DNA of 64,000 nt from Bacteroidota bacterium (GTDB lineage Bacteria; Bacteroidota; Bacteroidia; UKL13-3), in contig JAUXUD010000104.1 in the NCBI GenBank assembly GCA_030680835.1, positions 25,051 through 89,050 on the forward strand, given 5' to 3'. Position 1 is the first letter of the stretch. Each line of letters starts with the position of its first letter. A program made the position numbers and the translations under genes. Below the pieces are notes generated by a model. That model saw only the letters and a list, made by a program, of their open reading frames with translations, had not been told where the DNA came from and ran no database searches. Shown here one piece after another: positions 8,859 through 49,299 of the stretch.

Positions 8859-8937
8859 ATGTTTAGTATTTAGCAATTTCGTATCAACTCCCTGTTAACT
8901 AAGAATTTTTTTAATTGCTAATTCTAAAGAAACTATT

Positions 8938-26137: not shown

Positions 26138-27384
26138 ATACCGTTCCAACAATTACATTAGACACAAACTGCATTATTAATCTTATTGATTTTACCACTA
26201 AGTCTCCAATTTCCGTGGAAGCCTTATCTGAAATAATTAGGTACGGGCTCTTAAATGTAGCGCAAATATCTATTATTACTCGCGTAGAATCTGACTTGTT
26301 AAAGGATAAAAACTCGGAACGTAAAGCTGAAATGTTACGCAAAATTAGTATGTTCCCAATTGTAGGGGCTGTAACAGACGGAGATGATCTGAAAAATGAA
26401 TTACAAAAAATATTATTTCCAGGGCTTACCGATAATGACCCACGTTTTCACAACAAAATTACCGACATAGAACACCTAGTTGGACATAAGATTAATGGCC
26501 GAGATATATTCGTGACTGATGATAAATCAATTCTTAAAAAAAGCGATATTCTTAAAAAAAGCCCTGGCATAATTGTTTTATCACCCGAAGATTGCTTAAA
26601 GTACATTGAAGAAATAGAGGATAAAAAAAGGAAAGTTGTATTGCGAAGTAAAAAGAATAATCCGGACTATGAATCGACTAAATTATCGGGAATTGTTACT
26701 TTTGATTATTCAAATAACGAACATCAATTCAATATTGGGGAGGGATATTTTCTTTTTGAAACATTGTGGAGCAAGGGTAGCAATTCTTCAATTCATTCGT
26801 ATAGGAATCCGCCGAGTATAAGTGCAATAGCCTTAGTCAAAGACAAGTCCGAAATTCAGCAAATTAAAGATGCCGTAACTTATGATTATTCTTCGCGGAG
26901 TAGAACAGTACTGAAGGGTCAAATTCTTTTATTAAAAAATAAAAATGGATTTTATGCGGCCATAAAAATTCTAAAAGTTAAAAGTGATACCCATGGTTTT
27001 GACAGAGATGAATTGACTTTCGAGTATTTTATTCAATCTGATAATACTTCAAGTTTTAACGATGCTCCAAAATCATCGGTAGAAATTAAATCGTTTGCGG
27101 CACATGTTGTACAAATAGGCGGCATTGATTCTCGCAACACAACGAAAACATGCTGGTCAACTGAAGGACAGGAATATTTTGACTTCGACGAACTAGCTTC
27201 AATAAGCTTCAATCGGGGTGGAGATATTATGGGGCTGGCACCAAAAGAAGGCTATAAAATATCTGACTGTTCAAGTCCATCTGGCAATCCTATAATAAAT
27301 GAAGAAGGATATCCACTTGGATGCAGAATTATGTTAGAAGATAAATTGAAAAACGAAATCATTATTTATTGTGAAAAAATCTAG
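26134..27384 (+). CDS. PIN-domain protein with about 260-aa uncharacterised C-terminal domain; third gene of the OLD-UvrD operon
   Basis: ITLDTNCIINLID (first PIN Asp) and IFVTDDKSILKK (C-terminal PIN Asp pair). Start overlaps the helicase stop (ATGA). Confidence 0.55.
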   Translation: MNTVPTITLDTNCIINLIDFTTKSPISVEALSEIIRYGLLNVAQISIITRVESDLLKDKNSERKAEMLRKISMFPIVGAVTDGDDLKNELQKILFPGLTDNDPRFHNKITDIEHLVGHKINGRDIFVTDDKSILKKSDILKKSPGIIVLSPEDCLKYIEEIEDKKRKVVLRSKKNNPDYESTKLSGIVTFDYSNNEHQFNIGEGYFLFETLWSKGSNSSIHSYRNPPSISAIALVKDKSEIQQIKDAVTYDYSSRSRTVLKGQILLLKNKNGFYAAIKILKVKSDTHGFDRDELTFEYFIQSDNTSSFNDAPKSSVEIKSFAAHVVQIGGIDSRNTTKTCWSTEGQEYFDFDELASISFNRGGDIMGLAPKEGYKISDCSSPSGNPIINEEGYPLGCRIMLEDKLKNEIIIYCEKI

Positions 27385-29399: not shown

Positions 29400-31115
29400 T
29401 TATTTATTTCCAAAGAGCTTTTGTGGAGTAGGTATCTGGATAGTCAGCTTGAACGGTATATTGTTGCCAATTTCTCTAATATTTGAAGGTCTATTTGTGC
29501 TCATGCCATTCCTATCGCCAGAGAAGAATGAGACATTGTTTTCGGTTGTTATTGGTATATAACCACATATTTGTAATTCTTGTTGTGTTCCAACAATTTT
29601 TTCTATAACGTTCATCATTATGCCTCTTTTGACCTCAAAACTCAAGTCCATTAGCTTTTCCTTTACGTTTTTAACAAAGACTTCAATTTGATCCATGTCA
29701 GGTATTTTTATTTCTTCACTATTTCGTTCCTGTTCCCTTGCTCTTTCAATTTGAGATTCTAACATGGTTATTTTTTCTTTAATAGGTATTAGAAACTCTC
29801 TTAATTGCTCCAAAGTGAGCATCCCCGCACCGTATGCTCTGTTGAAACGAATCTCTTCCATTTTTGAGTTCATTAATTCATCTTCTATTTGCCTAATCTC
29901 ATCCGGCTGAAATGTATTTTTAGTACTTTTAATATTTTTCCATCTGGTTGCGTGTTCTAATATAATCTGCGGTGAAGTCATCAGCATCGAGATACTTTGC
30001 CAGACCATATTATCTATGATTCTGGCATTGATTCCACCTTGTAAGCACGTCTTAGGCAATGGGAAATTATTTATCCGATCATTGCATCTATAGTACAAGT
30101 ATTTACCATGTTTAGGGCCTTCACCTGACCTTCTCCTACCGCAAGAACAAAAAATTAATCCGATCAATAAATAGTCATATTTTTTATTTCGTATACTTTG
30201 CTTGAAATTTCTTTCAACCCTTTCACGAACGCGATAAAACAATTCTTTATCAATAATTGGAGGTACAGGAATTTTATACCATTCTTCCTCCGGCTTCATC
30301 CTTCTACTACTTTTTTTTACTTTCCTATATTTTGTTGTGCTTTTGGGATTTTCTGGAACAACAGCGTATGAGCTACCCCAATGAGCCTCTCCAATGTAAG
30401 CCTTATGTTTAAGAAGAGTTGTTAAGGTACTGGTACTCCAAACCCCTCTTTTGCTTTTTCTAGGTTTAATTCCGAGCTGATACAATCTTGTTACTATCTT
30501 CCTTTGCGTTAGCCCTTCTTCATCTATCCATTTAAAGATCATCTGGATCACCTTAGACTCTTCTTGATTAACCTTATAGTAACCATGAATTTTGTCCTCT
30601 TTTTTTATATATGTATACCCATACAATGGTTCGCTAACAAGAAGATTACCTTCGCGGACTTTACGAACTTTCCCTAATCTGAATCTTTCCTTTATTTTCA
30701 TTCTTTCATATTCAGTAAAGACACCCCGCATCTTATACATAATTATTTCTTCATCGGTTTTCGGTTGAGGTATCGTTACGAAAAGAACATCAATTTCCAA
30801 TTCTTTTAATTCCTCCATGACTACTTCTTGCCATGCCCCTCGTCTTGCCAATCGGTCCGGGTCATAAATGAGAACAGCCTCCCAATTCCTTTTCTTGGCA
30901 TCCATTCGGAGCTGATCCAAACCTGGCCTTATTAGATTATCACCACTCCACCCTTCATCTAAATATTCTTTTACTATCGTGTAGCCATGCAATTTTGCAA
31001 ATTCAGATACTGCCAAAAGCTGAGTCTCTATTGTACCCTCACTTTCTTGATTTGAGGTAGAAACTCTCCCATAAATTGCGATTAATTTAGTTTTCTTTAT
31101 CAATAAGTTTTCCAT
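29400..31115 (-). CDS. Large serine recombinase (resolvase domain + recombinase domain + zinc ribbon + coiled coil)
   Basis: LIAIYGRVSTSNQESEGTIETQ catalytic region, 571 aa, Cys cluster CSCGRR...YYRCNDR. Confidence 0.85.
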   Translation of the reverse strand: MENLLIKKTKLIAIYGRVSTSNQESEGTIETQLLAVSEFAKLHGYTIVKEYLDEGWSGDNLIRPGLDQLRMDAKKRNWEAVLIYDPDRLARRGAWQEVVMEELKELEIDVLFVTIPQPKTDEEIIMYKMRGVFTEYERMKIKERFRLGKVRKVREGNLLVSEPLYGYTYIKKEDKIHGYYKVNQEESKVIQMIFKWIDEEGLTQRKIVTRLYQLGIKPRKSKRGVWSTSTLTTLLKHKAYIGEAHWGSSYAVVPENPKSTTKYRKVKKSSRRMKPEEEWYKIPVPPIIDKELFYRVRERVERNFKQSIRNKKYDYLLIGLIFCSCGRRRSGEGPKHGKYLYYRCNDRINNFPLPKTCLQGGINARIIDNMVWQSISMLMTSPQIILEHATRWKNIKSTKNTFQPDEIRQIEDELMNSKMEEIRFNRAYGAGMLTLEQLREFLIPIKEKITMLESQIERAREQERNSEEIKIPDMDQIEVFVKNVKEKLMDLSFEVKRGIMMNVIEKIVGTQQELQICGYIPITTENNVSFFSGDRNGMSTNRPSNIREIGNNIPFKLTIQIPTPQKLFGNK

Positions 31116-34813: not shown

Positions 34814-35611
34814 CTAAAACATCAAACCCAATTTCAGTCCACTCTGAAAATACACAGGATTAGTTCCTACAATTGCATAATTGTAACCTACCAAATCAGT
34901 ATTATCCCTTGTTGCTGTGCCAATGCCCATCCCAAAATAATAGTCAATGGCAAGCATATCACCGATGGTCCATTGCTTACCGATATTAAACATCACACAA
35001 GCAAAGGACACGGTTCTTCTGGTATAGGTATATGGGTCAAACCATGGATTGTTGTACCAATCATATGTTTTTCGTTCTTCCGAAAATCCACCAAAGACCA
35101 GCTCCGGTTTAAAATAGGAACCTTTTAATAAATGTGATGATTTACCTAAATTGGAATAGTATTCTGGTGAGCGTTTAAATTTGAATCCAAAACGAATAAA
35201 GGCACCGTTTAATTTAGTAATATCATCATCCTTTTGACCCGTACCAATATGTCCAAGCTGAATTTCCCACGTTTTAGTCGGACTGATACTCCTTTCATAT
35301 CCAATTACGAATTTGGAAGAGGCATAAGCGAACACATCAACCTTGATGACATTCTTATCATCCAAAGAAGTATTAATTCCCTGATCCATATACATCTCTT
35401 TTCCTTTTGCCGTCTTTATCTTCACAACCTCCGATTTAGAAATAATTTTAGCTGGACCTGTTTGAGAATTATTATCCCTGTATACAATATTTTCAGGCCC
35501 AATAGCTACTATACTGACATTTAAAACCGTTTTGTCTTTTTTATAAATCAAATCCTGGGCTGTACAAATCTTTGAAAGGCAACAAATTATGAGCACAATT
35601 ATATATTTCAT
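34814..35611 (-). CDS. Outer-membrane beta-barrel protein, hypothetical
   Basis: Signal peptide, alternating hydrophobic pattern, C-terminal Phe (LKLGLMF). Confidence 0.45.
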   Translation of the reverse strand: MKYIIVLIICCLSKICTAQDLIYKKDKTVLNVSIVAIGPENIVYRDNNSQTGPAKIISKSEVVKIKTAKGKEMYMDQGINTSLDDKNVIKVDVFAYASSKFVIGYERSISPTKTWEIQLGHIGTGQKDDDITKLNGAFIRFGFKFKRSPEYYSNLGKSSHLLKGSYFKPELVFGGFSEERKTYDWYNNPWFDPYTYTRRTVSFACVMFNIGKQWTIGDMLAIDYYFGMGIGTATRDNTDLVGYNYAIVGTNPVYFQSGLKLGLMF

Positions 35612-35622
35612 AGCTATGTTGT

Positions 35623-36522
35623 TTAATAGATTCCAAAATCAAACACCTTATCATTTGAATACATAGACGGTGTGGCACCGGTATAGATAAAGCAATACTC
35701 TCCGGCAGATAAACTTCCGGTAATGATAATCTTGTAAATATTTTCTGCGATTTCCTCATAACCAAAAGACACTTTTTGTTTTTCATCAATACCAATGGAA
35801 CTACCATAGCTATTTGATTTACCGATAACAAACTCCCTACAATCCTTCTTTTCTTTCATTTTAACTAATGCAAATTCATTAGGTGAAGTAGCAGAAGCAA
35901 ACCACCAATTAGCTGCCTGATTTAAACTGTTATTGCTGTGATCAAAGTAGAAATAAAACACTATCTGCTTACTTTGTATTTGTTTCCTTGAATTCGCACC
36001 CGACAGTATTGAGGTAGTTTTAGCATTAGCCAATCCATAAGTGTAATGACTGGCAAGAGCCTGGCCAAATCCTCCTGATTTTCCCGAACTCACAACCGTT
36101 GGATCAATTCGTGATAACTGCCTTTCAATATCAGCAGGATTATAATAATAGATACCGGAGTTGTGCATCACCTTAGGATCATTCAAATCAACTATTTCCA
36201 CCTTATTCTTCTCAGTAGATTCAATCATAGCTGATACTATTTCATCAGGAATACCATCATTTTTGAGTTTAACCAATGCATCTGTGGATACATCAAAGGT
36301 GTTCTTCGTAGTTTTAATCTTGTTAATAATGATACCGGTACCCAATCCCTTTTGGAATAGTACGGTAACAGATTCATTGGATAGAATGTCTTGTTTAGGT
36401 TGTGCTGTAACCGTAAATACGGCAAGCAGAATCAGAAACATGGAGAGATAAAAATGTTTTTTTGTTTTCATATGATAAAAAATTAGAAATCGAAGGTATG
36501 ATAAAAAAACAAAAATATCCAC
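35623..36522 (-). CDS. Secreted hypothetical protein (likely start at the internal MKTKKHFYLSMFLILLAVFTVTAQ, about 36471)
   Basis: Signal peptide after an internal Met. Confidence 0.45.
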   Translation of the reverse strand: MDIFVFLSYLRFLIFYHMKTKKHFYLSMFLILLAVFTVTAQPKQDILSNESVTVLFQKGLGTGIIINKIKTTKNTFDVSTDALVKLKNDGIPDEIVSAMIESTEKNKVEIVDLNDPKVMHNSGIYYYNPADIERQLSRIDPTVVSSGKSGGFGQALASHYTYGLANAKTTSILSGANSRKQIQSKQIVFYFYFDHSNNSLNQAANWWFASATSPNEFALVKMKEKKDCREFVIGKSNSYGSSIGIDEKQKVSFGYEEIAENIYKIIITGSLSAGEYCFIYTGATPSMYSNDKVFDFGIY

Positions 36523-36542: not shown

Positions 36543-36851
36543 GTGGTAACTAAAGAAGGGTTTTCAAAGTTGCTTTGCATTATGGCAACTCAAAATAAAA
36601 CTGATACTACTCAGATACTTAAACTCGCAGATCGTATAAAAGAACTACGAATCAAAAAAGGTTATACCAGCTACGAATATTTTGCTTATGACCACGGTTT
36701 GTCCCGTTCCCAATACGGCAGATATGAAAAAGGAACTGACATCCGGTTCAGCAGTTTAATGAAAGTAATCGAAGCATTCGAAATGACCCCGGCTGAATTC
36801 TTCTTTAATTGGATTCCAGATGAACCTAAAAAAACAAAAAAGAAACCTTAG
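36543..36851 (+). CDS. XRE-family HTH regulator
   Basis: IKELRIKKGYTSYEYFAYDHGLSRSQYGRYEKG (Cro/C1-type HTH). Confidence 0.6.
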   Translation: MVTKEGFSKLLCIMATQNKTDTTQILKLADRIKELRIKKGYTSYEYFAYDHGLSRSQYGRYEKGTDIRFSSLMKVIEAFEMTPAEFFFNWIPDEPKKTKKKP

Positions 36852-37252
36852 CGTTTCGGAGGAGAGATTTGAACCTTTATCTATTCGCCAGAAGTGGTAA
36901 AGGAACAAATCCCGGAGGAGACCAATTTATAAAGAGGCCATTGAAAACAATTGTGACTACCGGAAACATTTTGTTTTTTGTGGCTACTTTCATTTAACCC
37001 TCATAAAAGAGACTGGTTCCACGTTCAAAAATGAATGAGTATGCGAATGATTTTTGGGGCGTGGTACAGACGCAAACTCATCATTCCAGATTAAAGTTTG
37101 TAGTGTGAAAGCTATATGCTTTGCCGGTATAAACTTTAAAAGATTGGAATGGTGAACATTTCATTACCCAATAAATTGGCCTAAAAAAATGTTTCAAGAG
37201 TTGATTCTATATAAAGATAACCACTTATATTTGCCTGAATATTTATCTACCA

Positions 37253-38158
37253 ATGGAAGATTTCAGAACCCCTCACGAAAACCTAACCCCTGCTTTAAAC
37301 CATTTTGTTCAAGGAATAGAAAATTTAGTCAATTTTGGTGTACAGATTGTAGGATGGGATTTAGATCAAGAAGGTAAAAGCGATGAGCATTTGCCACCAA
37401 TTTTATTTTTACGAAACTATATCGAGGTGATTGATGCTATTTCTATTCTTGTTAGGCATTCATCAATTGATCCTTGTAAAAATTTACTGAGAACAGCCTT
37501 AGAGAATTTGGCAAACATTGAATATCTTTTAGAAAAAGATACAAATCAAAGATCTTTGTCTTTTCTTGTTTGGAACTTCGTGAATGGTCACATGTCAGCT
37601 CTTAAAGTTGATGGAAAGTCACTTGAATACAAACAATTACGAGACGCATATAATAAAGATAGGTTTCTAAAAACCTCTACTCCTTCAATTCATCCTGATG
37701 CAGAGCAGGCCAAGGCAAATAGCGTGGCGTTATTAGCACATGACAAGTATAAGGCTGTCCATTTGGAATATAGAAGAACAGCAAAAAGGATACAAAACCC
37801 AAACTGGTATTCATTATTCAACGGACCTCGAACCATGAAAAAATTATGTGAACATTTAGAAATAAATGTTCTTTATGAATTGGTGTATCGAACATTTTCA
37901 GAGTCAATTCATGGAACCGACATCATTCAGGGAATGATATACAGTGCAGGACCCGGGCGATCGGCAATTGCCCAAATTAGACACCCAGTAGCAGTACATA
38001 ATGTTACAACACTTTGCACAAACCTTACCCTGGTACTATATACCGACTACATTCAAAAAAGACTTCCGGATAAACATGCTGATTTTTTGAAATGGAAAGA
38101 TGAAATTATGCCGTTCCAAAAAAGCTTGTATGAGCAAGAATTCATTAATTTCGTTTAA
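37253..38158 (+). CDS. Hypothetical protein with HEPN-like Rx6H motif (Abi-like?)
   Basis: ELVYRTFSESIHGTD fits R-x(4-6)-H. All-helical composition. Confidence 0.35.
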   Translation: MEDFRTPHENLTPALNHFVQGIENLVNFGVQIVGWDLDQEGKSDEHLPPILFLRNYIEVIDAISILVRHSSIDPCKNLLRTALENLANIEYLLEKDTNQRSLSFLVWNFVNGHMSALKVDGKSLEYKQLRDAYNKDRFLKTSTPSIHPDAEQAKANSVALLAHDKYKAVHLEYRRTAKRIQNPNWYSLFNGPRTMKKLCEHLEINVLYELVYRTFSESIHGTDIIQGMIYSAGPGRSAIAQIRHPVAVHNVTTLCTNLTLVLYTDYIQKRLPDKHADFLKWKDEIMPFQKSLYEQEFINFV

Positions 38159-38209
38159 TGCCTGCTATCCTGAATCCCTTCTTATCTCAAAACTAGCTAA
38201 GTCAATCCA

Positions 38210-39703
38210 ATGAATTTTGCGATAGATACAGATGGAATCAAAATTAAACCGGAACCAAATAAAAAAGGATTCTGCCAACTTTGCGGTGGGCCTCTCATTG
38301 CCCATTGCGGTCAAATATACTCTTGGCATTGGAAGCATCAAGCGGATCGTGACTGCGATCCCTGGCACGAAAACGAAACAAAGTGGCATAGAGATTGGAA
38401 ATCTCGATTCCCCGAAAACTGGCAAGAAGTAATTCTTGAAAATGAATTTGGCGAAAAACACATTGCAGATATAAAAACAGTAACTAATACCGTAATTGAA
38501 TTTCAGAATTCGCCAATTTCATCTGCAACTATCGAAGTAAGAGAAGCCTTCTATGGGCAAATGATTTGGGTCGTTAACGCGACACCTTTCGTGGAAAGGC
38601 TGGATATTCGGAGCATAGTCACAACCAAATTGCGCGATATTGATTCTCAGTATTCCTATGCTTCGAGTCTTGAGCCTGACCCGTATGACAGTGAAATCAA
38701 ACTCGCTCAAAAGGCGATTACCGACACAAACAGGAATATAAGTAATATTGAGAAGGCTATAGAAAAGGTTCATTCCGAAATTAATCTATTCACCAAGACT
38801 CTTCAACAAATTGATTCCACCATAGAACTACTAATAAACAAGTGGAATCAAAGATACAAAGGAAGTAATTTCTACAACGAACCTCCGGTTACACGCATTA
38901 TTGGGGCATTGGAAAACACTTATAAATTAGAAATTAATTCAATTCTCAACCAAAAACTTGAGCTTAATAATAATCGAAAAGTTAAAGAGGAACTGCTACG
39001 ATTCATTGAAAGTCATAAGGACATACTTATCGAGGGTGAAATGCACAAAGTCATTAAATACAATGGGTTTACCAAGGAAAGCTTTCGTAATATTAAAGTA
39101 ATTTCCAAATTAGAAAAGGATAGTCTGTTTCCGAAAATTTTAAGAATAAACAGTGAAGGAGAATACCTGCAATATGGATATAATCAGGATAAATACATTT
39201 TTGCCGGAGATGTTAGCCAACTTGTACTCAAAACGAAATTAGAAATTCAGAATATTGAAACAGACCATCAGAAGTTAAACGAGGAATTTTCAAAGCTGAA
39301 ACCCCGAATAGGAGAAGAACTGCAAAAAATTCTATCCGAAGGAATTGACCAATCCATAGCGAATATTAAAAAATTAGAGATAGACCTAAATAATCTTTAT
39401 TCTGAACTTGCGAAAAATATTTCTGATGAACATCATTTTTCAAGGCTTCAGACTCAAGAAACTGCGAAGATACAGACAGAATCTGAACACGAAAAACAAA
39501 ATAAAAAGCTTGAAATAATGAAGTCCTTTAAAGGCCGTTACACATATGATTGGAAACATAAAAGACCATCATGGCGGGTAGCGAAGGCTCCCATTTTCAT
39601 AGATATCGGCGAAGATTACTTATTCCACATCTACAGAAAAGGCTACTTAAAAAAAATAACTATTGATACTTTCTTAAGGCATTATCAACGAAGCAAATTC
39701 TAA
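38210..39703 (+). CDS. CoiA-like nuclease-domain protein fused to an approximately 330-aa coiled-coil region
   Basis: N-terminus CQLCGGPLIAHCGQIYSWHWKHQ...KWHRDWK...GEKHIADIKT...VIEFQNSPIS matches the CoiA-family signature. The remainder is heptad-rich. Confidence 0.55.
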   Translation: MNFAIDTDGIKIKPEPNKKGFCQLCGGPLIAHCGQIYSWHWKHQADRDCDPWHENETKWHRDWKSRFPENWQEVILENEFGEKHIADIKTVTNTVIEFQNSPISSATIEVREAFYGQMIWVVNATPFVERLDIRSIVTTKLRDIDSQYSYASSLEPDPYDSEIKLAQKAITDTNRNISNIEKAIEKVHSEINLFTKTLQQIDSTIELLINKWNQRYKGSNFYNEPPVTRIIGALENTYKLEINSILNQKLELNNNRKVKEELLRFIESHKDILIEGEMHKVIKYNGFTKESFRNIKVISKLEKDSLFPKILRINSEGEYLQYGYNQDKYIFAGDVSQLVLKTKLEIQNIETDHQKLNEEFSKLKPRIGEELQKILSEGIDQSIANIKKLEIDLNNLYSELAKNISDEHHFSRLQTQETAKIQTESEHEKQNKKLEIMKSFKGRYTYDWKHKRPSWRVAKAPIFIDIGEDYLFHIYRKGYLKKITIDTFLRHYQRSKF

Positions 39704-39719
39704 CTTTGTCCAGGGGGTA

Positions 39720-39790
39720 CGGGGTAGGATGCCCCGCAAGATACAGTGTTCCGAACAAGATGATTTCTGTTCTTGGAGGAACACTGTATC
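39720..39790. terminator. Compound stem-loop: small GC hairpin plus a perfect 13-bp inverted repeat directly after the CoiA-like gene
   Basis: cggggtaggatgccccg then GATACAGTGTTCC-N25-GGAACACTGTATC. No T-run, so it may be a recombination or operator site rather than a terminator. Confidence 0.4.
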
Positions 39791-39840
39791 TTGCTACCCA
39801 ATCCCATATTCGAATTTTATCTTTCAAATTTCTTCAACAT

Positions 39841-40212
39841 AATTTGTTCCGCAGGAACAGCAAATAGCATCTTTTACATCCATTTTGTTCCGGGGTAACA
39901 GCATTTACTGTTTTCCAAAACAGCTTTTTAAAATAAAAAGCATCCAATAAAAAACAATTCCGATGGAATTCATTTTGGATAACTTTCTTACAAATCATTT
40001 CCCAATATACTGACTATATTATTATGCATTTTAGTCATGCTGTTCACTAGCTGAACAGGCTCATTATCAGCATGAGCCATAATGTCCAAAACTTCTTAAA
40101 CGGCACTTTAGTTGACGAATTCATTTCGAATCTGAATATAAATTATTTAACCAATATGAGACTCATCTCATGTTAAACCCAATAACTATGAATTTAATTA
40201 AACTCTATTTTA
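39841..40212 (+). repeat. About 375 bp direct repeat, copy 1 (paralogous to 45468-45838)
   Basis: About 85-90% identity by eye. Contains palindromes TTGTTCC-gca-GGAACAA, CTGTTCA-ctagc-TGAACAG and GGCTCAT-N7-ATGAGCC. Confidence 0.8.
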
Positions 40213-40313
40213 CTATTTATTTTTATACCCAACACCATGAAGAAGAATTTCAACCGACTTGACAAGTTACCAAGGCTGATATAAGATTATTATAAATTCT
40301 TAAAATCCTACAT

Positions 40314-40772
40314 ATGAAAACACAAATTTTTGAAAAATTTATCACAATCAATTGTGATATAATTCCTGAAATTCCAGAAGTAATGTATGTTAAAAATCAT
40401 CAGAAAAGAGGCCTTATTGAATGGCCACCAAATGATGGTATGAAACTACTTCAACCAAATGATAAACCTACTAATGGCTTAGTGGATGGTGAAGATATAT
40501 GCAAGCACATTTCAAATTTAAAACTGAATGTTCTTAATGCTTGTGTTTTAGATTTTTTGATTATCAATCAAAAGTTAATTCCTAAAAATTGGAAAAAGAA
40601 AATACAAGGAGAATCAATAAGAATATTCTTTCCTGGTACAATATTTCGAAATACAGTTGGACATACTTTTATTAGATACATTTTTTTTGACAAAAAAGGG
40701 AAATGGCAAAAATGCTCCTTTGAAACTGGATCACTGTGGACTAAAAGAGATCACTTAATAGTGGTTAACTAG
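40314..40772 (+). CDS. Hypothetical protein
   Basis: 152-aa ORF downstream of repeat copy 1. Confidence 0.4.
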   Translation: MKTQIFEKFITINCDIIPEIPEVMYVKNHQKRGLIEWPPNDGMKLLQPNDKPTNGLVDGEDICKHISNLKLNVLNACVLDFLIINQKLIPKNWKKKIQGESIRIFFPGTIFRNTVGHTFIRYIFFDKKGKWQKCSFETGSLWTKRDHLIVVN

Positions 40773-40824
40773 TCCATTTTGTACCCATCTTTTACAGAGG
40801 GCTGAATAATTATTTCGGCCCTTT

Positions 40825-41433
40825 TTAATTTTTCTGAGGAACCGATTTGCTGAGAATAATCGTTACAAAAATAAAAGTAATTATTAATTGAATCATAGCA
40901 ATTGAGTTCCCAAAACTTGTCAATGGTTTAACTTCATCATAATTGGCAGCTAATGAATTGGATATGCTATACCAAATTGCATTTAATGAAGATGCGGAAT
41001 CCGGCCATGTAAAATCATTTGTATATGACACCCTATATAAATACGCAAATGTGAAATTTGAATACGCAATTGCAAGTAATAACATAATAAATCGTCTTCG
41101 AAGTCTATCATTTTCGAAAACACTGCTATTTAGTGACTCGTCCTTCCACAAATGATAAAAGAAGTATGTAAAAAGATTCATTATTATAAGATACCAAATT
41201 ATAATTATAGTAAACGTATTCGAAACATTAGAGTGCCATAGAATAATTACGAATAACCATTTGCAGAAGATATAAGTATCTGTTGCTGTTCTTGAATAAG
41301 TATTTATTGAATTTCGATTATTTTTATTAGGATTCAACTTTAGGCCAGCGCTTTTAAAACATTCGACCAAGTTAATTTTGTCCATGATATTAATAATCAA
41401 GTCAATAAACCAATATATAAACCCATTTCTCAT
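40825..41433 (-). CDS. Hypothetical membrane protein (5-6 TM)
   Basis: Hydrophobic 202-aa ORF 19 nt downstream of the 1136-aa gene. Confidence 0.45.
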   Translation of the reverse strand: MRNGFIYWFIDLIINIMDKINLVECFKSAGLKLNPNKNNRNSINTYSRTATDTYIFCKWLFVIILWHSNVSNTFTIIIIWYLIIMNLFTYFFYHLWKDESLNSSVFENDRLRRRFIMLLLAIAYSNFTFAYLYRVSYTNDFTWPDSASSLNAIWYSISNSLAANYDEVKPLTSFGNSIAMIQLIITFIFVTIILSKSVPQKN

Positions 41434-41451
41434 TTATTTAGTTATTATATT

Positions 41452-44400
41452 TTAAGTCAATCTTTTTTTCTTAATATGTTCTGATAAAACTTTAGCATCT
41501 CTTCTTGTTGCGATAGAGAATCGATCTTTCTGTCTTATGAATTCACTAATTGCTTCCTTAAATTCACCCTTTATTTGACCATTCGTATCAATAATATCAT
41601 CAATAAATTCACCTAGTTTTAAATCATACCCGGAAATTCTCTCATCACAAATGTGAACTATACTTTCCGCAACTTTATATGTCAGGTTTTTTAAGTCATC
41701 AAAACATGAATCATTTGTAATAAATAATACTACCCACTCATTATCAAATTTAAAACACCGTTCCTTCAATAGTTTATGAATCATAAATACTTCCCATAAA
41801 CATATTAAGGATCTGAAAGACTCATTAGAATATTCAATTAGGAATAGACCGTAAGTATTAATAACCTTCTTTATTTCATTCAATAAATTTAGTCTTAAGA
41901 TATATTGCTGTTGATCTTTTAATTTATTTTTATAAAAATAACATTCCAATTTTATTTCTGAAGATAATTTATTAATAATAAAGTCAAATATGCCCTCCCC
42001 GTTTAAATCAGTTGCGGATAGAAAGGATACTATTTCCTTTTCATTGTTAGCACATTTATGGAAGTTCAAAACATCTTTCTGTTTAATGAATTTAGAAAAA
42101 TAGGATAGTTTCATTGCATTACCTAAGGCCCATAAATCTCTCATCAACGTGGTAGTGTGTCTAAAGTGTTTTCTTCTTATCCAAGGTTTAAAAGTAAACA
42201 GCCCACCTCGTGGATCAAAAAAATAATCAATGTCGAAATCCTCAGAGGACTTTACGGGCTTGCCTGTTATTTCATCTCGAATTAGGACATTCAATTTACT
42301 ATTCTTCAAGTGGTCACAAAAGATTCGTTTAGTACAAACATGACTGAGATAATTTATCGCGTCATAATGAACCGACCTCTTATTTTTCACATATCCAGAA
42401 AGAATATCCTCAAACTTTTCTACATCATCATTTAACCCAATTTGGTCAACAATTCTTAAGGTACTGCTTAACGATTCCCAAAGGTTATTGATCATTTCGA
42501 TTCTCTGTTGTTCCATAGAATTATAAAATACATCTATGTGCAAAGTATATTTGTCTAAATTAATTCCCTTTATATAGTTGTTCAAACTTAATTGGAATTC
42601 TGATGATATTCCGTTCAAGTCAAGTATTAGAGCGACGTTTCTCATCCTAATATAGTGAAACTCAATTACTGAATGATTCAATTGCCTTGGGGTCGAATAG
42701 CTATCGTTAATTTGAAAAGTGTTATGAAAATGCCATTTGATAAATGATTCAAAATCTCTTCGATAACCTGTTATAAATGTAAGCATGTCTACGATAAAAT
42801 ATCGGTAAATGTCACTTGCCTGTTCTTTGTCAATTATTTTGGAAAGATTTAAATCATCGTTAATTTGTATATGACGAAGTGCCCGATATAAGTCTGATGA
42901 GGAACTGAATCTACTTACATATTGATTCGCGGCTTCATGTGCAAGAATTGAAAAGAATATTTCAGGTTGATAAAGATGATTGTAATTAAGCCTTACTGCA
43001 TATTGAGTTGACGTTACATTTGAGTCAACTGAAACATATGTAAACCCTCCTGGTCCACCAATTACATTAGAATATATCTTATATGCTGCATCATATGAAC
43101 TAACTAACTGATGAATGCCTCCTTTGAATTCCAGATTGTGATCTGTAATCTCAAATAAAGAATGACTTTGTTGAAATCGATTAATATAAGCCATCTGAAG
43201 TTCATCAGTATTGAGGTAGAGGATATTTTGAAATGCCTTTAGAGTAATTGGTTTTGCTTTGCAATTTGAATAATCGATGATATAGTTATATAATTTTTCA
43301 AATCCGGGGCGCAATTCTATAAAATAAGAATACATAATGTGATCTCTTATACTCTCATTAAAATTTGCGAATAGATTATGAATTTTTGATGTGAGTATTT
43401 TGGAAACTCCAATTTTTTTGAAATGTGCCCGCAAGTTGTCAAATTCATCTTGCGTGAATTGCATGTAGTTCAATCTATGATGGATACGTTTATAGCCCTT
43501 GGCCACAACTCCAATGTTGTCAGAATTACTGTCAAATTCTATTTCAGGAATAGAGAATGTATTCTCGGTGTAAAATTGATCCTTATTTATTTGTTTATTT
43601 AATATTATGGAATGAATTACTCTAGCTACAGTTTTTCTACTACTTAGTTTCCGGTAAATTTTTGAAAATTCTCCAGGACCGTAAGTATGACTTTTAATTT
43701 GAGATCCTTTGCCTTTATTTAAAAGATTAATTACAGTTTTTGAATGCCCAGGTTTAACAAACCAACGTTGGAGCAATTTTATTCCTTCGTCTGAATCGAG
43801 TATGCTGGAATTTAGGTTATTCAATACCTGATTATATGTTTTACAACCCTCAATCTGCATATTCTTCAATAATTGACAGTCAAATCCAAGATTAAAAACG
43901 GCTTTTGAAAATATATTTATTCCGTTAATATCTCTCATTCCACATTTGTACCATAATGTTTCTCGGTACATTTTTTTGTCCACCTTAATTTCTGAAATAT
44001 CAAATATATCCTTCAATGTTAGGTTCTTAACCCTTTGTAAAATATTAGCGATAGACTTGTAACTATCACTAAATAGAACTAATTGTAGTTCATGCCAAGA
44101 GGTCGTTTCTAATAGCATAAATCTTGTTGATTTATCGCTCTGCCCCTTATAGTGATCGCAGTACTTTTCGATCGCAAATTGAATTAATTTAAATAATTCG
44201 AAGGAATTACCAATTTTCAACAAGTTATTAATTTTTAATGATGCCAATCCGATTAATGGATTATCTAATGGATGAATAGCACTGTTTTCTTTAAATAAAT
44301 TAACACCTTGAATATTTTTATATATTTTCTCTTCCGGGTCTTCCACTAAAAAACTATATAAGTTATAATCTCTCTCTTCCTTTTTTTTATCGTCCTCTTC

Positions 44401-44862
44401 TCTTAGATGAGGCATTATTCCAGTCAAAATTTGATACCGAAAAGATTTCTCAATATAGGGAGTAATGTCTTCATCTGATTTTGCTTTTGGTGAGAATGGA
44501 TGAAAATAATGGTCCGCAAATTCAAAATCTTCAATCAAAGACAATACTACAATATCCCATTTCCCCATGAGGCAAAAAGCTCTTGGAACGTAAAAGCCAT
44601 TTATAAATTGCCTTTTTAAAGTTTTATAATCACAACCATCAGGTAAATCTGCACTTTCAAAATAATTTCTATGTATACCATCTTCATCCCAATCATATAA
44701 ATGATTACTCAATTCTGTTTTATAATTCTTAAAGGTTTTTACAATTTCGTTTTCGAATAATTCCACAGCGTTCTCATAAGAAGTGCTAATGAAACCAAAA
44801 AAAAGTCCTAAATTTTCATGAGTGTATATTATTTTTGCCATGGGTAGATAAATTGTGTGCAA
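41452..44862 (-). CDS. Large orphan protein (1136 aa), no recognisable motif
   Basis: Uninterrupted 3.4 kb ORF. No P-loop, no HExxH, no obvious repeats. Confidence 0.55.
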   Translation of the reverse strand: MHTIYLPMAKIIYTHENLGLFFGFISTSYENAVELFENEIVKTFKNYKTELSNHLYDWDEDGIHRNYFESADLPDGCDYKTLKRQFINGFYVPRAFCLMGKWDIVVLSLIEDFEFADHYFHPFSPKAKSDEDITPYIEKSFRYQILTGIMPHLREEDDKKKEERDYNLYSFLVEDPEEKIYKNIQGVNLFKENSAIHPLDNPLIGLASLKINNLLKIGNSFELFKLIQFAIEKYCDHYKGQSDKSTRFMLLETTSWHELQLVLFSDSYKSIANILQRVKNLTLKDIFDISEIKVDKKMYRETLWYKCGMRDINGINIFSKAVFNLGFDCQLLKNMQIEGCKTYNQVLNNLNSSILDSDEGIKLLQRWFVKPGHSKTVINLLNKGKGSQIKSHTYGPGEFSKIYRKLSSRKTVARVIHSIILNKQINKDQFYTENTFSIPEIEFDSNSDNIGVVAKGYKRIHHRLNYMQFTQDEFDNLRAHFKKIGVSKILTSKIHNLFANFNESIRDHIMYSYFIELRPGFEKLYNYIIDYSNCKAKPITLKAFQNILYLNTDELQMAYINRFQQSHSLFEITDHNLEFKGGIHQLVSSYDAAYKIYSNVIGGPGGFTYVSVDSNVTSTQYAVRLNYNHLYQPEIFFSILAHEAANQYVSRFSSSSDLYRALRHIQINDDLNLSKIIDKEQASDIYRYFIVDMLTFITGYRRDFESFIKWHFHNTFQINDSYSTPRQLNHSVIEFHYIRMRNVALILDLNGISSEFQLSLNNYIKGINLDKYTLHIDVFYNSMEQQRIEMINNLWESLSSTLRIVDQIGLNDDVEKFEDILSGYVKNKRSVHYDAINYLSHVCTKRIFCDHLKNSKLNVLIRDEITGKPVKSSEDFDIDYFFDPRGGLFTFKPWIRRKHFRHTTTLMRDLWALGNAMKLSYFSKFIKQKDVLNFHKCANNEKEIVSFLSATDLNGEGIFDFIINKLSSEIKLECYFYKNKLKDQQQYILRLNLLNEIKKVINTYGLFLIEYSNESFRSLICLWEVFMIHKLLKERCFKFDNEWVVLFITNDSCFDDLKNLTYKVAESIVHICDERISGYDLKLGEFIDDIIDTNGQIKGEFKEAISEFIRQKDRFSIATRRDAKVLSEHIKKKRLT

Positions 44863-45002
44863 TAAAATATTTGTAAAGTCATTGCAATTATATAAAATTT
44901 ATTAATTTTACACTTCATTTAATAATAAAATGGTGATTTACTGCGTTTTATCGATATTTAATAACTATTTTGACCCGCTAAATTTCAAAAATCAAATTTT
45001 TT

Positions 45003-45425
45003 ATGCAAAAATTAATAGAATCCATACAAATTGGTGACATTCGTGTTAAAACTAAGGATTTACGACAATCACCAATTGTAAGTGTTAAAGAAAACCTTAC
45101 TGATTTATTAACAATAATGGAATTTTTGTATTCAAAAGCAAAAGAAAAAAAGAAAAAGAACCCAGAAATAAGAACATTATCCATGCTACATAATTTATTT
45201 TCATGGCCATTGAGTGATCTCAAGAATAATGTAAAGGATAGCAGTGGACTAGATGTATTTCCAAAATATCTAAATTATCGTAATAAAATTACGAATACTG
45301 AAATGAAAGAACAAAGCACAATACTAAACTCTATCAAAATAAAAAGGCCAAATGACAGACTGATTTCTGGTAAAGATTCAAAATATCTTTCTAGGCGATT
45401 CGGCTTTCAGCCAGACTTTGATTAG
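45003..45425 (+). CDS. Hypothetical protein
   Basis: 140-aa ORF upstream of repeat copy 2. Confidence 0.35.
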   Translation: MQKLIESIQIGDIRVKTKDLRQSPIVSVKENLTDLLTIMEFLYSKAKEKKKKNPEIRTLSMLHNLFSWPLSDLKNNVKDSSGLDVFPKYLNYRNKITNTEMKEQSTILNSIKIKRPNDRLISGKDSKYLSRRFGFQPDFD

Positions 45426-45467
45426 CGGTATTCCGATTCTAGCTTTAACCATTTATTAATTGGTCTT

Positions 45468-45838
45468 ATTTTGTTCCGCAGGAACAACAAACTACATTTA
45501 TTACATCCATTTTGTTCCGGAGTAATTGCATTAACTGTTTTACAAAACAGCTTTTTAAAATAAGCTACATCCAATAAAAAATAATTCCAACGGAATTCAT
45601 TTTAGATAACTCTTTTACAGATAATTTACCGATATACTGACAATATTATTATACACTTCTGTCATGCTGTTCACTAGCTGAACAGGCTCATAATCAGCAT
45701 TAGCCATAATGTCCAAAACTTTTTAAATGGCACTTTAGTTGAAGAATTTATTTCGATTCTGAATACAAATTTTTTAACCAATCATGAGCTTCATCTCGTG
45801 TTAAACCCAATAACTATGAATTTAATTAAACTATTTTT
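45468..45838 (+). repeat. About 375 bp direct repeat, copy 2, candidate oriT/operator region upstream of the mobilisation genes
   Basis: Same palindromes as copy 1 (TTGTTCCGCAGGAACAA at 45471-45487, CTGTTCACTAGCTGAACAG at 45667-45685). Ends about 115 bp before the coupling-protein gene. Confidence 0.8.
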
Positions 45839-45952
45839 TAAGTACCTATTTCTAATCGCATTTACTGCCTTTGAGATGTTAGGCGAAATTTTCTTGTTCA
45901 TTGTTAAGGCAATTAAAACAGGCCTTGAAAAAACTAATAAATAAACAGCGAT

Positions 45953-47428
45953 ATGAATAACCTCACATTATTTTTTCAGGGATTCGGTAGAATCACCTGG
46001 ATCTGCATTACATATTTTGCAAATGGAGTGTTCTGGATACTCACCTCTATTTTTGAAGCAATAGAAAACGGTTTAAATAGTTCAATACCTAAAAAAGAAG
46101 GTTTCGATGCAGATTTTTTATCTCAAGGCGAATTATTGAGTTCATTTAATAAAGGGTTTACCGTAACCGGTGCTAAATCTTTAACTGAAAAGGATAGCCA
46201 TCAACATGTTTTAGTAATTGGGGGTTCAGGATCAGGTAAAAGTACCGTTGTAATTATTCCTTCAATTTTTTCACTCGCAAAACACGGGCATAGTCAATGC
46301 ATCCATGATCCATCGGGTGAACTTTATAATGCTACAGCTGGCTATTTAAGAAGTCTGGAATATGATGTACTGGTATTGGATTATAATAGGCCTGAAATGT
46401 CAGATGGATATAATCCACTTGAAAGAATTAAAACCGGATCGGACATTTTCAAAACTGCAACAACCTTGGTGCAAAACAGTATGGGCAAATCTGGAACAGA
46501 TGCCTTTTGGAATTCACAAGCGGTAAGCTTCATTTCCCTAATGATTACCATTCTTAAAAAACAGAGTGCTAAATACCAAACATTAACTAATGTACGACAC
46601 CTGGTGAATTCCTTTTTAAGCGAACCGGAAATGATGGATAGATTGGTAGCCGGTTGCTGTGATCCGGCCATTCTTAAGGAATACAAATCATTTCTAACAA
46701 CCGAAAAGAAAGTGATGGCGAATGTCATCAGCACCTGCCGGAGTTCATTACAATTGTTCGCTGACGAATCAATTCAACTGGTTACTTCCGAGGACTCCAT
46801 CAATTTTAACAAATTCCGTGAGAAGAAAACCGCATTGTTCATAATGAACAAAACGGCTGATCTCTCATATTACGCACCCCTCAGTTCAACTTTTTTCCTT
46901 CAATTCTTCAATTTCATCATGTCCCAGCCGGTACCTGACAAAAAAACTCGCAGCATTTTCTTCCTTATCGATGAAATGTCCAGCCTATTCCTCCCAACGA
47001 CCATGCAAATCGCTTTATCAAATTTACGTAAGTACCGTTGCGGGATAATGGGAATTATCCAGGACTGTAACCAGTTGGAGCACCTCTACGGCAAAAATGA
47101 AGCCGGTGCCATCCTCTCTAACTGCTACTGCAAGGTTTACTTCCCCGGACAGCCAATTGATACAGCCCGTGAGCTTGAATCCATGCTCGGTAAACGTGAA
47201 TACGAAGATGATGATGGCAAAAAACGCACCAGAGCCCTTTTAACAGCGGATGAAATTAGGGTAATTGATAAGGAGCATGCTTTGATATTTTGTGGCCCAA
47301 ATAGAGCCATATACGCATATATGAAGCCCTTTTACAAAAACTATCGGTATAACGGCCATGCTAAGTTACCAATTGCAAATATGAACCGGAATATCCTTCA
47401 AACTAATGTCCACCTTATCGGCTCATAA
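45953..47428 (+). CDS. Type IV coupling protein (VirD4/TraG/MobC-like) ATPase
   Basis: Walker A VLVIGGSGSGKST, Walker B FFLIDEMSSLF. Size and position next to the relaxase. Confidence 0.7.
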   Translation: MNNLTLFFQGFGRITWICITYFANGVFWILTSIFEAIENGLNSSIPKKEGFDADFLSQGELLSSFNKGFTVTGAKSLTEKDSHQHVLVIGGSGSGKSTVVIIPSIFSLAKHGHSQCIHDPSGELYNATAGYLRSLEYDVLVLDYNRPEMSDGYNPLERIKTGSDIFKTATTLVQNSMGKSGTDAFWNSQAVSFISLMITILKKQSAKYQTLTNVRHLVNSFLSEPEMMDRLVAGCCDPAILKEYKSFLTTEKKVMANVISTCRSSLQLFADESIQLVTSEDSINFNKFREKKTALFIMNKTADLSYYAPLSSTFFLQFFNFIMSQPVPDKKTRSIFFLIDEMSSLFLPTTMQIALSNLRKYRCGIMGIIQDCNQLEHLYGKNEAGAILSNCYCKVYFPGQPIDTARELESMLGKREYEDDDGKKRTRALLTADEIRVIDKEHALIFCGPNRAIYAYMKPFYKNYRYNGHAKLPIANMNRNILQTNVHLIGS

Positions 47429-47433
47429 AAATT

Positions 47434-47862
47434 ATGGCAAAACCTAAGAGCAAGGCATTGTATGAGTATCTGTTATATGCCGGAGTACTAAACAGTACTC
47501 CGGATGAAATTGCTTTGGCTAAGGTTGCCTACCGGAAAGCATACCTATTAAATTGGAAAGAAAAGAAGGCTCCACTGATTAAAGAAATTAGAATTGTTTG
47601 TTCACTGAAAGAATACAAAGACGTTAAAGTTTTCTCAAATAACCTCGGTAAATCTCCAACAGCATTTACCAAATCCCTACTTCTTTCATTTATCACCCAA
47701 CATTCCATGTTACCGAATCAGCAACAACTGGAATCCATTTATCAAAAGATTGGATTGATTATCAATCAAAGTCTGAAAGATAAATCAAATCTTAACCTGA
47801 TCGAAAAACTGATAACGATTGAGGAGGAGTTGAAAGAATATCTTAAATCCAATTCAAAATGA
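47434..47862 (+). CDS. Small mobilisation accessory protein, hypothetical
   Basis: 142-aa ORF between coupling protein and relaxase. Its end overlaps the relaxase start by 4 nt. Confidence 0.4.
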   Translation: MAKPKSKALYEYLLYAGVLNSTPDEIALAKVAYRKAYLLNWKEKKAPLIKEIRIVCSLKEYKDVKVFSNNLGKSPTAFTKSLLLSFITQHSMLPNQQQLESIYQKIGLIINQSLKDKSNLNLIEKLITIEEELKEYLKSNSK

Positions 47863-48707
47863 TATACAAAGTAATGACACGCAGTACACCAACATATAAA
47901 GGACTTATTGAGTATATTCTAAATGAATCCAAAACTCCTGATAGTCATATTTTCACTCATAACCTGCGTTCAAAGAAGCGGGACGTAAAGAATATAACCA
48001 AAGAGTTCATTGAAAACGAATCATACCGAAAATATTCCCGCAGTGATCAGGTGTTTTTAAACCATGAGATTATAAGCTTTAGTAACATGGATTCTGTAAA
48101 GATTCAACCTGCCATGATCCAAGATATTATGAATCGGTATATTTCATTAAGAGGTGAAAATGGTGTTTACCTGGCCAGTGTCCACCAAGATACCAGCCAA
48201 ATACACGTACACATCATGGTATCTGGTTTACAGTACCGGTCAGGCCGTTCCTTTTATATCCCGAAAGACAAATTATTTAAACTTAAGAAAGATTTACAGG
48301 AATATCAAAAAGAGAAATACCCTGAAATTTCTTATAGCCTGCCGAATCATGGTTCCAAAAGAGAATATGTAACCGACCGGAAATGGTTTGCTAAACACAA
48401 AGAAGATAGAAGTATTGAAAAGGTAATTCTGCAGAAAACCATTAAAGAAGCGTTTGAAATATCCTCAACCCAAAAGGAATTTTTAAACCTGCTGGCTAAA
48501 CAAAACCTCCATTACTATGAAAGGAGTGGAAGTCCTGCCGGTATAATTTCCGGCAATTCCAAATTTCGCTTTTCAAGATTGGGTATATCAAAAGAACTAT
48601 TCAACGACCTACCGTTTGATTTTACCGAAGAAAGCCAGGCTTTAAAAGAAATTGAATTGATCAGGAAATCAAGAAATGTCAATACAAATATTGAAATGGA
48701 ACGATAA
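47859..48707 (+). CDS. Relaxase/mobilisation nuclease (MobB-like)
   Basis: Relaxase motif III HxDxxxxHxH in LASVHQDTSQIHVHIMVSG. N-terminal Tyr-containing region. Confidence 0.75.
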   Translation: MIYKVMTRSTPTYKGLIEYILNESKTPDSHIFTHNLRSKKRDVKNITKEFIENESYRKYSRSDQVFLNHEIISFSNMDSVKIQPAMIQDIMNRYISLRGENGVYLASVHQDTSQIHVHIMVSGLQYRSGRSFYIPKDKLFKLKKDLQEYQKEKYPEISYSLPNHGSKREYVTDRKWFAKHKEDRSIEKVILQKTIKEAFEISSTQKEFLNLLAKQNLHYYERSGSPAGIISGNSKFRFSRLGISKELFNDLPFDFTEESQALKEIELIRKSRNVNTNIEMER

Positions 48708-49299
48708 CAAAAAAATAATTAATCCAAATACAACAATGAATAACAACACAAATGTTGAAACCACCCAGGCTGTGGCTGACAACAAATCAAAAACAACTCC
48801 GATCATTGAACCGGATGTAAAATCAACTCCCTCACCTGATGCACCAGTCGTTAAGAAAAGACCGATTGAGATTGCCAGGGATTTACTTAAAGCACAATCA
48901 GTAGTAGTAAGAAGCCAGGTTGAATCTGGCCAGTTTGAAACTATTAATGATGCAATTATTGAAACCAAATATAAGGATGGAAAAAATCAGGAATTCAAAA
49001 GTTACCGGCAATGGAAAAAAGAAGGGTATCAAGTCAGAAAGGGCGAAAAAGCCTTCCTGTTATGGGGTAAACCTAAAGAAAATACTAATTCCAAAATTGA
49101 ATCGGAACAAAAAAATACCGGCAAGGATAGTCCAGACGAGCATGATCCATTCTTCCCGATTGCATTTGTCTTCTCCAACGCCCAGGTTAACCCTAAGGAA
49201 ATCCAGTTGGAACCAGAAGTAAATGCAACAGTTAATGAGCTTGTCAATATCCGGCACAAGAAACAGGATAGAGATTTACAAAACGAAATGACAAGATAA
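48676..49299 (+). CDS. Protein with ArdC-N-like ssDNA-binding motif
   Basis: SYRQWKKEGYQVRKGEKAFLLWGKP parallels the ...G..VKKGEK... motif of the two ArdC-like genes. Confidence 0.4.
   Translation: MSIQILKWNDNKKIINPNTTMNNNTNVETTQAVADNKSKTTPIIEPDVKSTPSPDAPVVKKRPIEIARDLLKAQSVVVRSQVESGQFETINDAIIETKYKDGKNQEFKSYRQWKKEGYQVRKGEKAFLLWGKPKENTNSKIESEQKNTGKDSPDEHDPFFPIAFVFSNAQVNPKEIQLEPEVNATVNELVNIRHKKQDRDLQNEMTR

Follow-up and report, generated by a model that had tools for sequence, protein, structure and literature searches.

The window analysed here is a 64,000-nucleotide stretch of DNA from an uncultured member of the Bacteroidota (GenBank assembly GCA_030680835.1, contig JAUXUD010000104.1, positions 25,051 to 89,050 of the forward strand), and it contains two diverged direct copies of a palindrome-rich sequence of about 375 bp, the second of which lies ahead of the genes for a VirD4-type coupling protein (T4CP) and a relaxase. 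This repeat is probably the promoter/operator region of the mobilisation (mob) operon of an integrative mobilisable element (IME), duplicated by recombination around a block of cargo genes, with the origin of transfer (oriT) located elsewhere. The ancestral arrangement would have held each part once, in the order XRE-type helix-turn-helix (HTH) gene, double hairpin, regulatory region, small open reading frame (ORF) and T4CP gene. In the window the regulatory region is duplicated, with 5.2 kb of lower-GC cargo between the copies; owing to this duplication, copy 1 now precedes an orphan gene of 152 amino acids (aa), the mob operon being preceded by copy 2 as before. The motif TGGCAY-N5-TTG found in the region would correspond to a -24/-12 promoter of RpoN (sigma-54), driven by an enhancer-binding protein at the palindromes.

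The repeat pair

A repeat search delimited two pairs of direct repeats (39840-40139 and 45467-45766, 87% identity; 40140-40212 and 45768-45840, 84%) separated by a 1-nt indel, and BLASTN aligned copy 1 with copy 2 over 374 nt in the same orientation at 87.7% identity (E = 3e-133), without any third copy in the 64-kb window. The start-to-start distance is 5627 nt. These values agree with an earlier note on this DNA, which had described two direct copies 5.6 kb apart and 85-90% identical by eye. The boundaries of the repeat are sharp, as beyond either end identity falls within 40 nt to a background of about 50-59%, and the longest identical runs common to both copies measure 31 and 34 nt. A contig of 5516 nt (L023) from the Logan assembly of run SRR13727518 reproduces window positions 40175-45690 at 100% identity; since its ends fall in shared runs of at least 31 identical bases, both cargo junctions are genuine.

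The description of the repeat as palindrome-rich, given in the same note, applies strongly to copy 1, which contains nine perfect palindromes (arms of at least 6 nt) vs. 1.9 expected; of 1000 dinucleotide shuffles, 2 have as many, and any other 373-nt tile of the window has at most 7. Copy 2 is modestly enriched (5 vs. 2.2 expected, with 71 of 1000 shuffles reaching 5). The three inverted repeats that had been named are all present, but perfect arms of full length are found in both copies only for CTGTTCA-ctagc-TGAACAG: TGTTCC-gca-GGAACA occurs in both, with 7-bp arms in copy 2 only, and GGCTCAT-N7-ATGAGCC is perfect in copy 1 only, copy 2 reading ATTAGCC. The distance from copy 2 to the VirD4-like gene, previously put at about 115 bp, measures 112 nt; the remainder of the conserved small ORF fills it, so the gap is coding and not a spacer.

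Single-copy homologues in related elements

The T4CP-gene neighbourhoods of related elements (L002, L003, L004, L018/L019, L020/L021 and L022) were compared, and further homologues were sought by a metagenome scan with a degenerate core pattern (GTCATGCTGTTYANNNNNTGAACA). Of its 12 matches, ten are unrelated; the remaining two, in L007 and L012, are true homologues, and each is directly followed by a T4CP gene. The association with the coupling-protein/relaxase module proposed in the earlier note is borne out by these comparisons, as every true homologue of the repeat (L002, L003, L004, L007 and L012) is single-copy and directly upstream of the T4CP gene. Between the XRE-type HTH gene and the T4CP gene, L002, L003 and L004 each have one intergenic region of about 600 bp, which contains, in this order, a homologue of window 39701-39816, a homologue of the core at 40030-40090, TGGCAY-N5-TTG, and a small ORF of about 40 aa abutting the T4CP gene. 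In the window, 39701-39816 is the flank just left of copy 1, and 40030-40090 lies inside the repeat. Because the left flank and the repeat core both match one intergenic region in the relatives, the ancestral left flank has been kept at copy 1, and the ancestral right one at copy 2.

The closest T4CP relative, in L002, is only 74% identical. This element with a single regulatory region and the cargo contig L023 come from one sequencing run, SRR13727518; thus, two members of the family share one community.

A promoter-like motif with upstream palindromes

Nine sequences, L018 and L022 included, were anchored gap-free on the TGGCA motif. TGGCA-N6-TTG is the sole block conserved in all nine (eight independent intergenic regions), and it is kept even in L018 and L022, whose intergenic regions are otherwise unalignable. 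The form TGGCAY-N5-TTG is kept in eight of nine independent elements. Elsewhere in these loci a relaxed version of the motif has a frequency of about one in 10-15 kb, and its distance to the start of the small ORF is 43-98 nt across elements; given this rare background and the same place before the small ORF, the position of the motif is not due to chance. Furthermore, a palindrome of the form TGTTCA(C)-N-(G)TGAACA stands at -60/-61 from the motif in seven sequences (both window copies, L002, L003, L004, L007 and L012), and distal TGT...ACA palindromes are located at -113 to -257.

Sigma-54 promoters consist of TGGCAC-N5-TTGC, with upstream sites bound by bacterial enhancer-binding proteins. 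The present regions resemble them in the GG/TTG element, its canonical spacing and its place upstream of an operon, and also in the dyad symmetry expected of upstream activator sites, which is shown by the fixed proximal palindrome and the distal ones, about 80 nt and farther upstream of the predicted start. Genes with a Sigma54_activat domain (PF00158) are present inside three related elements (L003, L004 and L022). Sigma-54 is used in Bacteroidota, with the consensus TGGCAC-N5-7-TTGCT (PMC12316311). Taken together, TGGCAY-N5-TTG and the palindromes suggest an enhancer-dependent sigma-54 promoter architecture, in which the palindromes would be the binding sites of an enhancer-binding protein. 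A scan for sigma-70-type promoters showed no enrichment (30 sites vs. 39 expected), and no Bacteroidetes promoter of the -33 TTTG/-7 TAnnTTTG type was spotted by eye.

Several points weigh against this interpretation. The -12 element reads TTGA, TTGG or TTGT in nine of nine sequences and never the consensus TTGC, and no sigma-54 activator gene was found by tblastn and Pfam in the 64-kb window, nor in the closest relative, L002. Between the two copies, the promoter core has 5 mismatches in 81 positions vs. 40 in 294 elsewhere, a lower divergence that is not significant (Fisher p = 0.08) and falls short of demonstrating selection on both copies. Lastly, the recombination mechanism had to be inferred, because no close relative shows the cargo-free single-copy state.

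Additional -24/-12-like motifs were observed beside the enhancer-binding-protein genes of L022 (about 6103, minus strand), L003 (about 16755) and L004 (about 16695). Of these, the one in L022, TGGCATCCTTGTTGA, lies upstream of the 594-aa/HTH_17 genes, and L003 and L004 share a conserved ATATAGGCATGTTTTT(G/A)GG in their divergent region. It may be that excision genes are controlled in the same way as the mob operon.

The conserved hairpin as candidate oriT

Outside the repeat, 40 nt to the left of copy 1, the window carries a single-copy double hairpin with a main stem of about 30 bp. A covariance model recovers it in nine of nine independent elements (70-107 bits); pairing holds in 95% of cells and compensatory changes are found at 12 of 30 pairs, values that none of 500 shuffles reaches, and slid controls are only 33-49% paired. 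Folded as single-stranded DNA it has a dG of -26.6 kcal/mol (z = -7.1). Its invariant sequence comprises GGGGTWCGGGG and CCGCAAGATA...TATCTTGC. The hairpin adjoins the promoter region in five elements and lies 2.7 kb upstream in L018, whereas in L022 and L020 it has the opposite orientation, at a distance of 5-8 kb on the downstream side. As expected of an oriT, it is conserved in cis across the relaxase family and consists of an inverted repeat with a conserved single-strand flank. On these grounds it is the best candidate for the oriT, a proposal to which we would give an even chance; it may instead be an RNA element, or a signal for replication or priming in single-stranded form.

In the oriT of IncP/RP4 type, the nic sequence YATCCTG|Y comes after an inverted repeat. 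The present hairpin is similar in that its inverted repeat is long and has a conserved flank next to it, and in the ATCCTG or ATCCTA read on the minus strand in the loop of the small hairpin in the window, L002, L003 and L018 (four of eight; absent from L004, L007, L020 and L022). It differs in that this string lies in a variable loop, the invariant sequence being GGGGTWCGGGG ... CCCCGCAAGATA. Because of its place in a variable loop, the string is weak evidence and unlikely to be the nic site, and its candidacy as a MOBP nic site was downgraded. No nic consensus can be borrowed from elsewhere, as the relaxase is only distantly related to the typed families. The predicted place of nic is on the minus strand, 3' of the large stem, within GGGG-loop-CCCC-GTACCCC.

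Rfam gave no match for the repeat or the hairpin region at gathering thresholds, nor beyond noise at E up to 10, and a literature string search with the hairpin sequence returned primers and unrelated matches only. Among viral contigs, the hairpin pattern gave 38 matches, approximately the chance number by a rough estimate; the covariance model gave a score to none, and visual inspection showed unrelated sequences, including phage operator-like repeats.

Alternative explanations for the repeat

The earlier note had proposed the repeat as a candidate oriT/operator, and its upstream copy as a possible second oriT; the inverted repeats would then be binding sites for the relaxase and accessory proteins. 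The repeat does lie immediately upstream of the mob operon and is palindrome-rich, and the homologous region is contiguous with the hairpin in five relatives, so that both could be parts of one extended oriT region. Nonetheless, the core found in L002, L003, L004, L007 and L012 is absent from L018, L020 and L022, which keep the mob module with homologous relaxases (43-55% identity), and there the hairpin is kilobases away from the region upstream of the T4CP gene; the repeat lacks in this sense the cis conservation expected of an oriT. The nic-consensus search that the note had suggested was run on both copies, and YATCCTGY or ATCCT[GA] occurs in neither, the MOBP consensus being the one tested and the MOB class of the relaxase being uncertain. 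Family-wide conservation inside the repeat is limited to the promoter-like motif, which keeps a fixed distance to the start codon that follows. An oriT function of the repeat appears unlikely and is not supported by these comparisons, and the operator half of the proposal is the one that fits the conserved palindromes and the promoter-like motif.

A possible, if doubtful, reading concedes a regulatory role to copy 2 only, and takes copy 1 as a non-functional recombination relic, the 152-aa ORF being unexpressed from it or no gene at all. This ORF has in fact no homologue among 5.8 billion clusters (a word-index search returned only the ORF itself), the lower divergence of the promoter core is not significant, and the -24 element of copy 1 is CGGCAC instead of TGGCAC. 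On the other hand, copy 1 has every palindrome, and more perfect ones than copy 2, it retains the GG, the TTG and the start of the small ORF, there is a terminator-like hairpin after the 152-aa ORF, and the motifs are undecayed at 12% divergence, which suggests constraint. A further proposal, in which each copy of the repeat would specify a small protein or else a non-coding RNA, can draw on a minus-strand ORF of 30 codons over the core palindrome, which is open in both copies, and on short peptides (...VNSMT...) readable in L002 and L003. ORF length and start are not conserved (about 15, 17, about 20 and 30 aa by eye), the amino-acid differences between the copies spotted by eye are replacements with no third-position pattern, and neither the Rfam search nor the fold of the predicted 5' leader (z -0.29, not significant) gave any signal; coding potential was rejected on length, start and third-position pattern, and we regard this proposal as highly improbable. 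Almost no credence can be given to the repeats being ends or copies of an insertion sequence (IS) or miniature inverted-repeat transposable element (MITE) family unrelated to mob genes, the case named in the note as the one that would refute it, since nothing beyond the existence of two copies speaks for it. The window holds only these two, both direct, where terminal inverted repeats, a target-site duplication and many dispersed copies would be expected of an IS or MITE, and the true homologues are single-copy at one conserved position upstream of the T4CP gene. Neither the repeat nor the hairpin nor a region of 12 kb had a match in 72,556 plasmids, 185,579 species genomes scanned with an exact 19-mer yielded a single match inside an unrelated gene, and viral contigs scanned with the core pattern gave one chance match.

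Cargo blocks and origin of the duplication

The 5.2-kb block between the copies has a GC content of 0.299 vs. 0.355-0.368 for the backbone, its proteins lack close homologues, and it looks like foreign cargo. The suggestion that the 1136-aa gene and its neighbours had been captured between two element copies fits the anatomy described above, copy 1 having the ancestral left flank and copy 2 the right one. The label of orphan given to this gene did not hold: a word-index search returned only the protein itself, and an exhaustive HMMER search returned 418 homologues, 25-37% identical. Pfam has no annotation for this family, in which TIR domains are fused to 5 of the 23 members aligned; these fusions suggest a defence role, and the 1136-aa product is probably a defence protein. 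PADLOC and NCBIfam gave no match for the four ORFs between the repeats, and two sub-threshold matches only for the flanking ORFs at 37253-39703. As the relatives have no gap between the HTH gene and the hairpin, 36852-39703 constitutes a second cargo slot.

Duplications of the backbone recur in the family. In L004, cargo of RHS/YD-repeat type lies between two direct hairpin copies (3520-3618 and 9474-9568, 81% identity), and in L012 (reverse-complemented) an 875-bp direct repeat (1621-2494 vs. 8255-9129, 91%) starts inside the hairpin and brackets cargo; L012 also contains, at 2470-2900, an older inverted partial copy of the promoter, the small ORF and the 5' end of the T4CP gene. Furthermore, the backbone is mosaic: the T4CP is nearest to that of L002 (74% vs. 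67% for L003), the relaxase is nearest to that of L003 (62% vs. 54% for L002), and the left-arm genes at 34814-36522 are nearest to L003. The recurrent duplications and the mosaic backbone favour recombination between elements or Campbell-type integration. The most likely source of the duplication would thus be recombination between two closely related elements or with a related circular molecule (non-allelic or Campbell-type), and not transposition; an old in-situ duplication is still conceivable.

The pattern seen in three independent elements (the window with 375 bp, L004, and L012 with 875 bp) could also be explained if the hairpin and the mob promoter were a dedicated cargo-capture site, at which hairpin-initiated recombination inserts gene blocks under the sigma-54-type promoter and leaves diverged direct duplications behind. 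Such recombination might be catalysed by the relaxase, or might arise from hairpin-induced template switching during single-strand transfer, and the promoter over the captured genes might be switched on by a trans activator from a helper element. We rate this idea as rather improbable. In comparison with the cargo hotspots of integrative elements, the family is alike in having variable defence-like cargo at a fixed backbone site, on either side of the hairpin and before the mob promoter, and shares the mosaic backbone with hotspots and tandem accretion. The difference is that cargo in the window, L004 and L012 is bracketed by diverged direct backbone duplications; to our knowledge, duplication-bracketed cargo is not a described hallmark of integrative-element hotspots.

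The mobilisable element

The element is an IME with its own relaxase and coupling protein: these two genes are accompanied by a serine recombinase, and no mating-pore families were found among the window ORFs scanned. IMEs encoding both proteins are a described class (PMC5704250). The features are listed in Table 1. The small ORF that opens the mob operon has 41-54% aa identity (tblastn) to counterparts in L003, L004, L007, L012, L018 and L020, and those of L002 and L022 were read by eye in the upstream sequence; it has no family assignment and is easily overlooked by gene callers. The conserved 142-aa gene may encode an accessory protein of the relaxosome. With the NCBIfam models for MobP and MobV, the relaxase remains far under the cut-offs, its MOB class being uncertain, and among plasmids it has one match only, on a Desulfotalea plasmid at 29% identity.

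Table 1. Features of the repeat region and the mob operon, in window coordinates.
Feature	Position	Strand	Remarks
Large serine recombinase	29400-31115		In the mobile-element region
XRE-type HTH gene	36543-36851	+	Directly before the hairpin in relatives
First cargo insertion, between HTH gene and hairpin	37253-38158; 38210-39703		DUF5677 gene; 497-aa ORF (weak CoiA-N match)
Double hairpin, single-copy	39710-39804		Small GGGG-loop-CCCC stem, then 17-bp stem GCAAGATACAGTGTTCC / GGAACACTGTATCTTGC with extended apical stem
Repeat copy 1	39840-40212	+	Regulatory intergenic region; ancestral left neighbour (hairpin) kept; now upstream of the orphan 152-aa ORF
Core palindrome CTGTTCA-ctagc-TGAACAG, copy 1	40040-40058		Candidate activator/repressor binding site
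Sigma-54 -24/-12-like element CGGCAC-TTTAG-TTGA, copy 1	40101-40115	+	Predicted transcription start near 40127
Truncated small ORF in copy 1	40188-40262	+	First 8 codons shared, then 16 unrelated codons and a stop
Orphan 152-aa ORF (cargo)	40314-40772	+	Immediately downstream of copy 1
Bidirectional terminator-like hairpin	40796-40824		After the 152-aa ORF
202-aa membrane-like ORF and 1136-aa protein (cargo)	40825-44862	-	1136-aa gene at 41452-44862
140-aa ORF (cargo)	45003-45425	+	Ends 42 nt before copy 2
Repeat copy 2	45467-45840	+	Ancestral position, ahead of small ORF, T4CP, 142-aa gene and relaxase
Core palindrome CTGTTCA-ctagc-TGAACAG, copy 2	45667-45685		Candidate activator/repressor binding site
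Sigma-54 -24/-12-like element TGGCAC-TTTAG-TTGA, copy 2	45728-45742	+	Transcription predicted to start near 45754; ATG of the small ORF 62 nt further on
Conserved hydrophobic 42-aa small ORF	45816-45944	+	First mob-operon gene; repeat ends at codon 8
VirD4-type coupling protein (T4CP)	45953-47428	+	PF02534, E 1.6e-58
Conserved 142-aa mob-operon gene	47434-47862	+	No family match
Relaxase, PF03432	47859-48707	+	282 aa; only distantly related to typed MOBP and MOBV families
Shorter ArdC-N protein	48676-49299		In the mob operon; third ArdC-N of the window

The canonical Bacteroides IMEs NBU1, NBU2, Tn4399 and Tn4555 carry a MobP relaxase and an adjacent oriT (PMC5704250). The present family is like them in being integrated, in encoding its own relaxase, in the cis site upstream of the mob genes and in that no mating-pore genes were seen among the ORFs scanned. 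It adds a VirD4-type coupling protein and the conserved 42-aa ORF, its relaxase falls far short of the MobP and MobV cut-offs as mentioned above, and its candidate oriT hairpin may be kilobases away from the mob operon.

Regulation by rteA-rteB, as in CTnDOT-type elements, is a further parallel, as transfer functions of a Bacteroidota element are placed there under a dedicated regulator. RteB, which a review describes as a response regulator only, is probably an NtrC-family activator of sigma-54 type. Mobilisable elements of NBU type depend on a regulator supplied in trans, namely those of CTnDOT. By analogy, a trans activator from a helper element would explain why none is encoded in the window. 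The two systems differ in their unrelated relaxase and T4CP subfamily, in the recombinase, which is of serine and not tyrosine type in the window, and in that the window has no tetQ-rteA-rteB module.

Significance

The repeat is an ordinary kind of feature, and the mobilisable-element family to which it belongs is itself undescribed; its parts can now be defined as the small ORF, the T4CP, the 142-aa gene, the divergent relaxase and the conserved hairpin. If the repeat is regulatory, an oriT call on this palindrome-rich sequence, automated or by eye, would be wrong, and the conserved hairpin would be the cis element of interest. The apparent sigma-54-type control would link mobilisation to an activator that some members lack. 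The region from the hairpin to the mob promoter serves as a slot for defence-like cargo, and the duplicated backbone around the cargo in three elements may inform on how such genes are acquired. The wider interest thus lies in the probable sigma-54 control of mobilisation and in the recurrent bracketing of cargo near the hairpin, neither of which overturns current understanding.

Other genes of the mobile-element region

The mobile-element region of the window has a higher GC content, and no tRNA genes were found. Besides the genes listed in Table 1, it holds RadC, two ArdC-metallopeptidase genes, a Gabija-like pair, a zeta toxin, a TrwB-like ATPase and an Arginase-LRR-Roc-COR-TIR protein. The two ArdC-N and zincin-metallopeptidase genes are tandem paralogues beside RadC (17625-19647, minus strand). 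The Gabija-like pair consists of AAA_15 with an OLD-type TOPRIM and of a UvrD-type helicase; after it comes a 416-aa ORF, which PADLOC matches weakly to PDC-M11A (21981-27384 in all, plus strand). Lastly, an unusual fusion of Arginase, LRR, Roc/COR and TIR domains forms a 1321-aa protein (55973-59938, minus strand), encoded at the right edge of the element in a segment of low GC.

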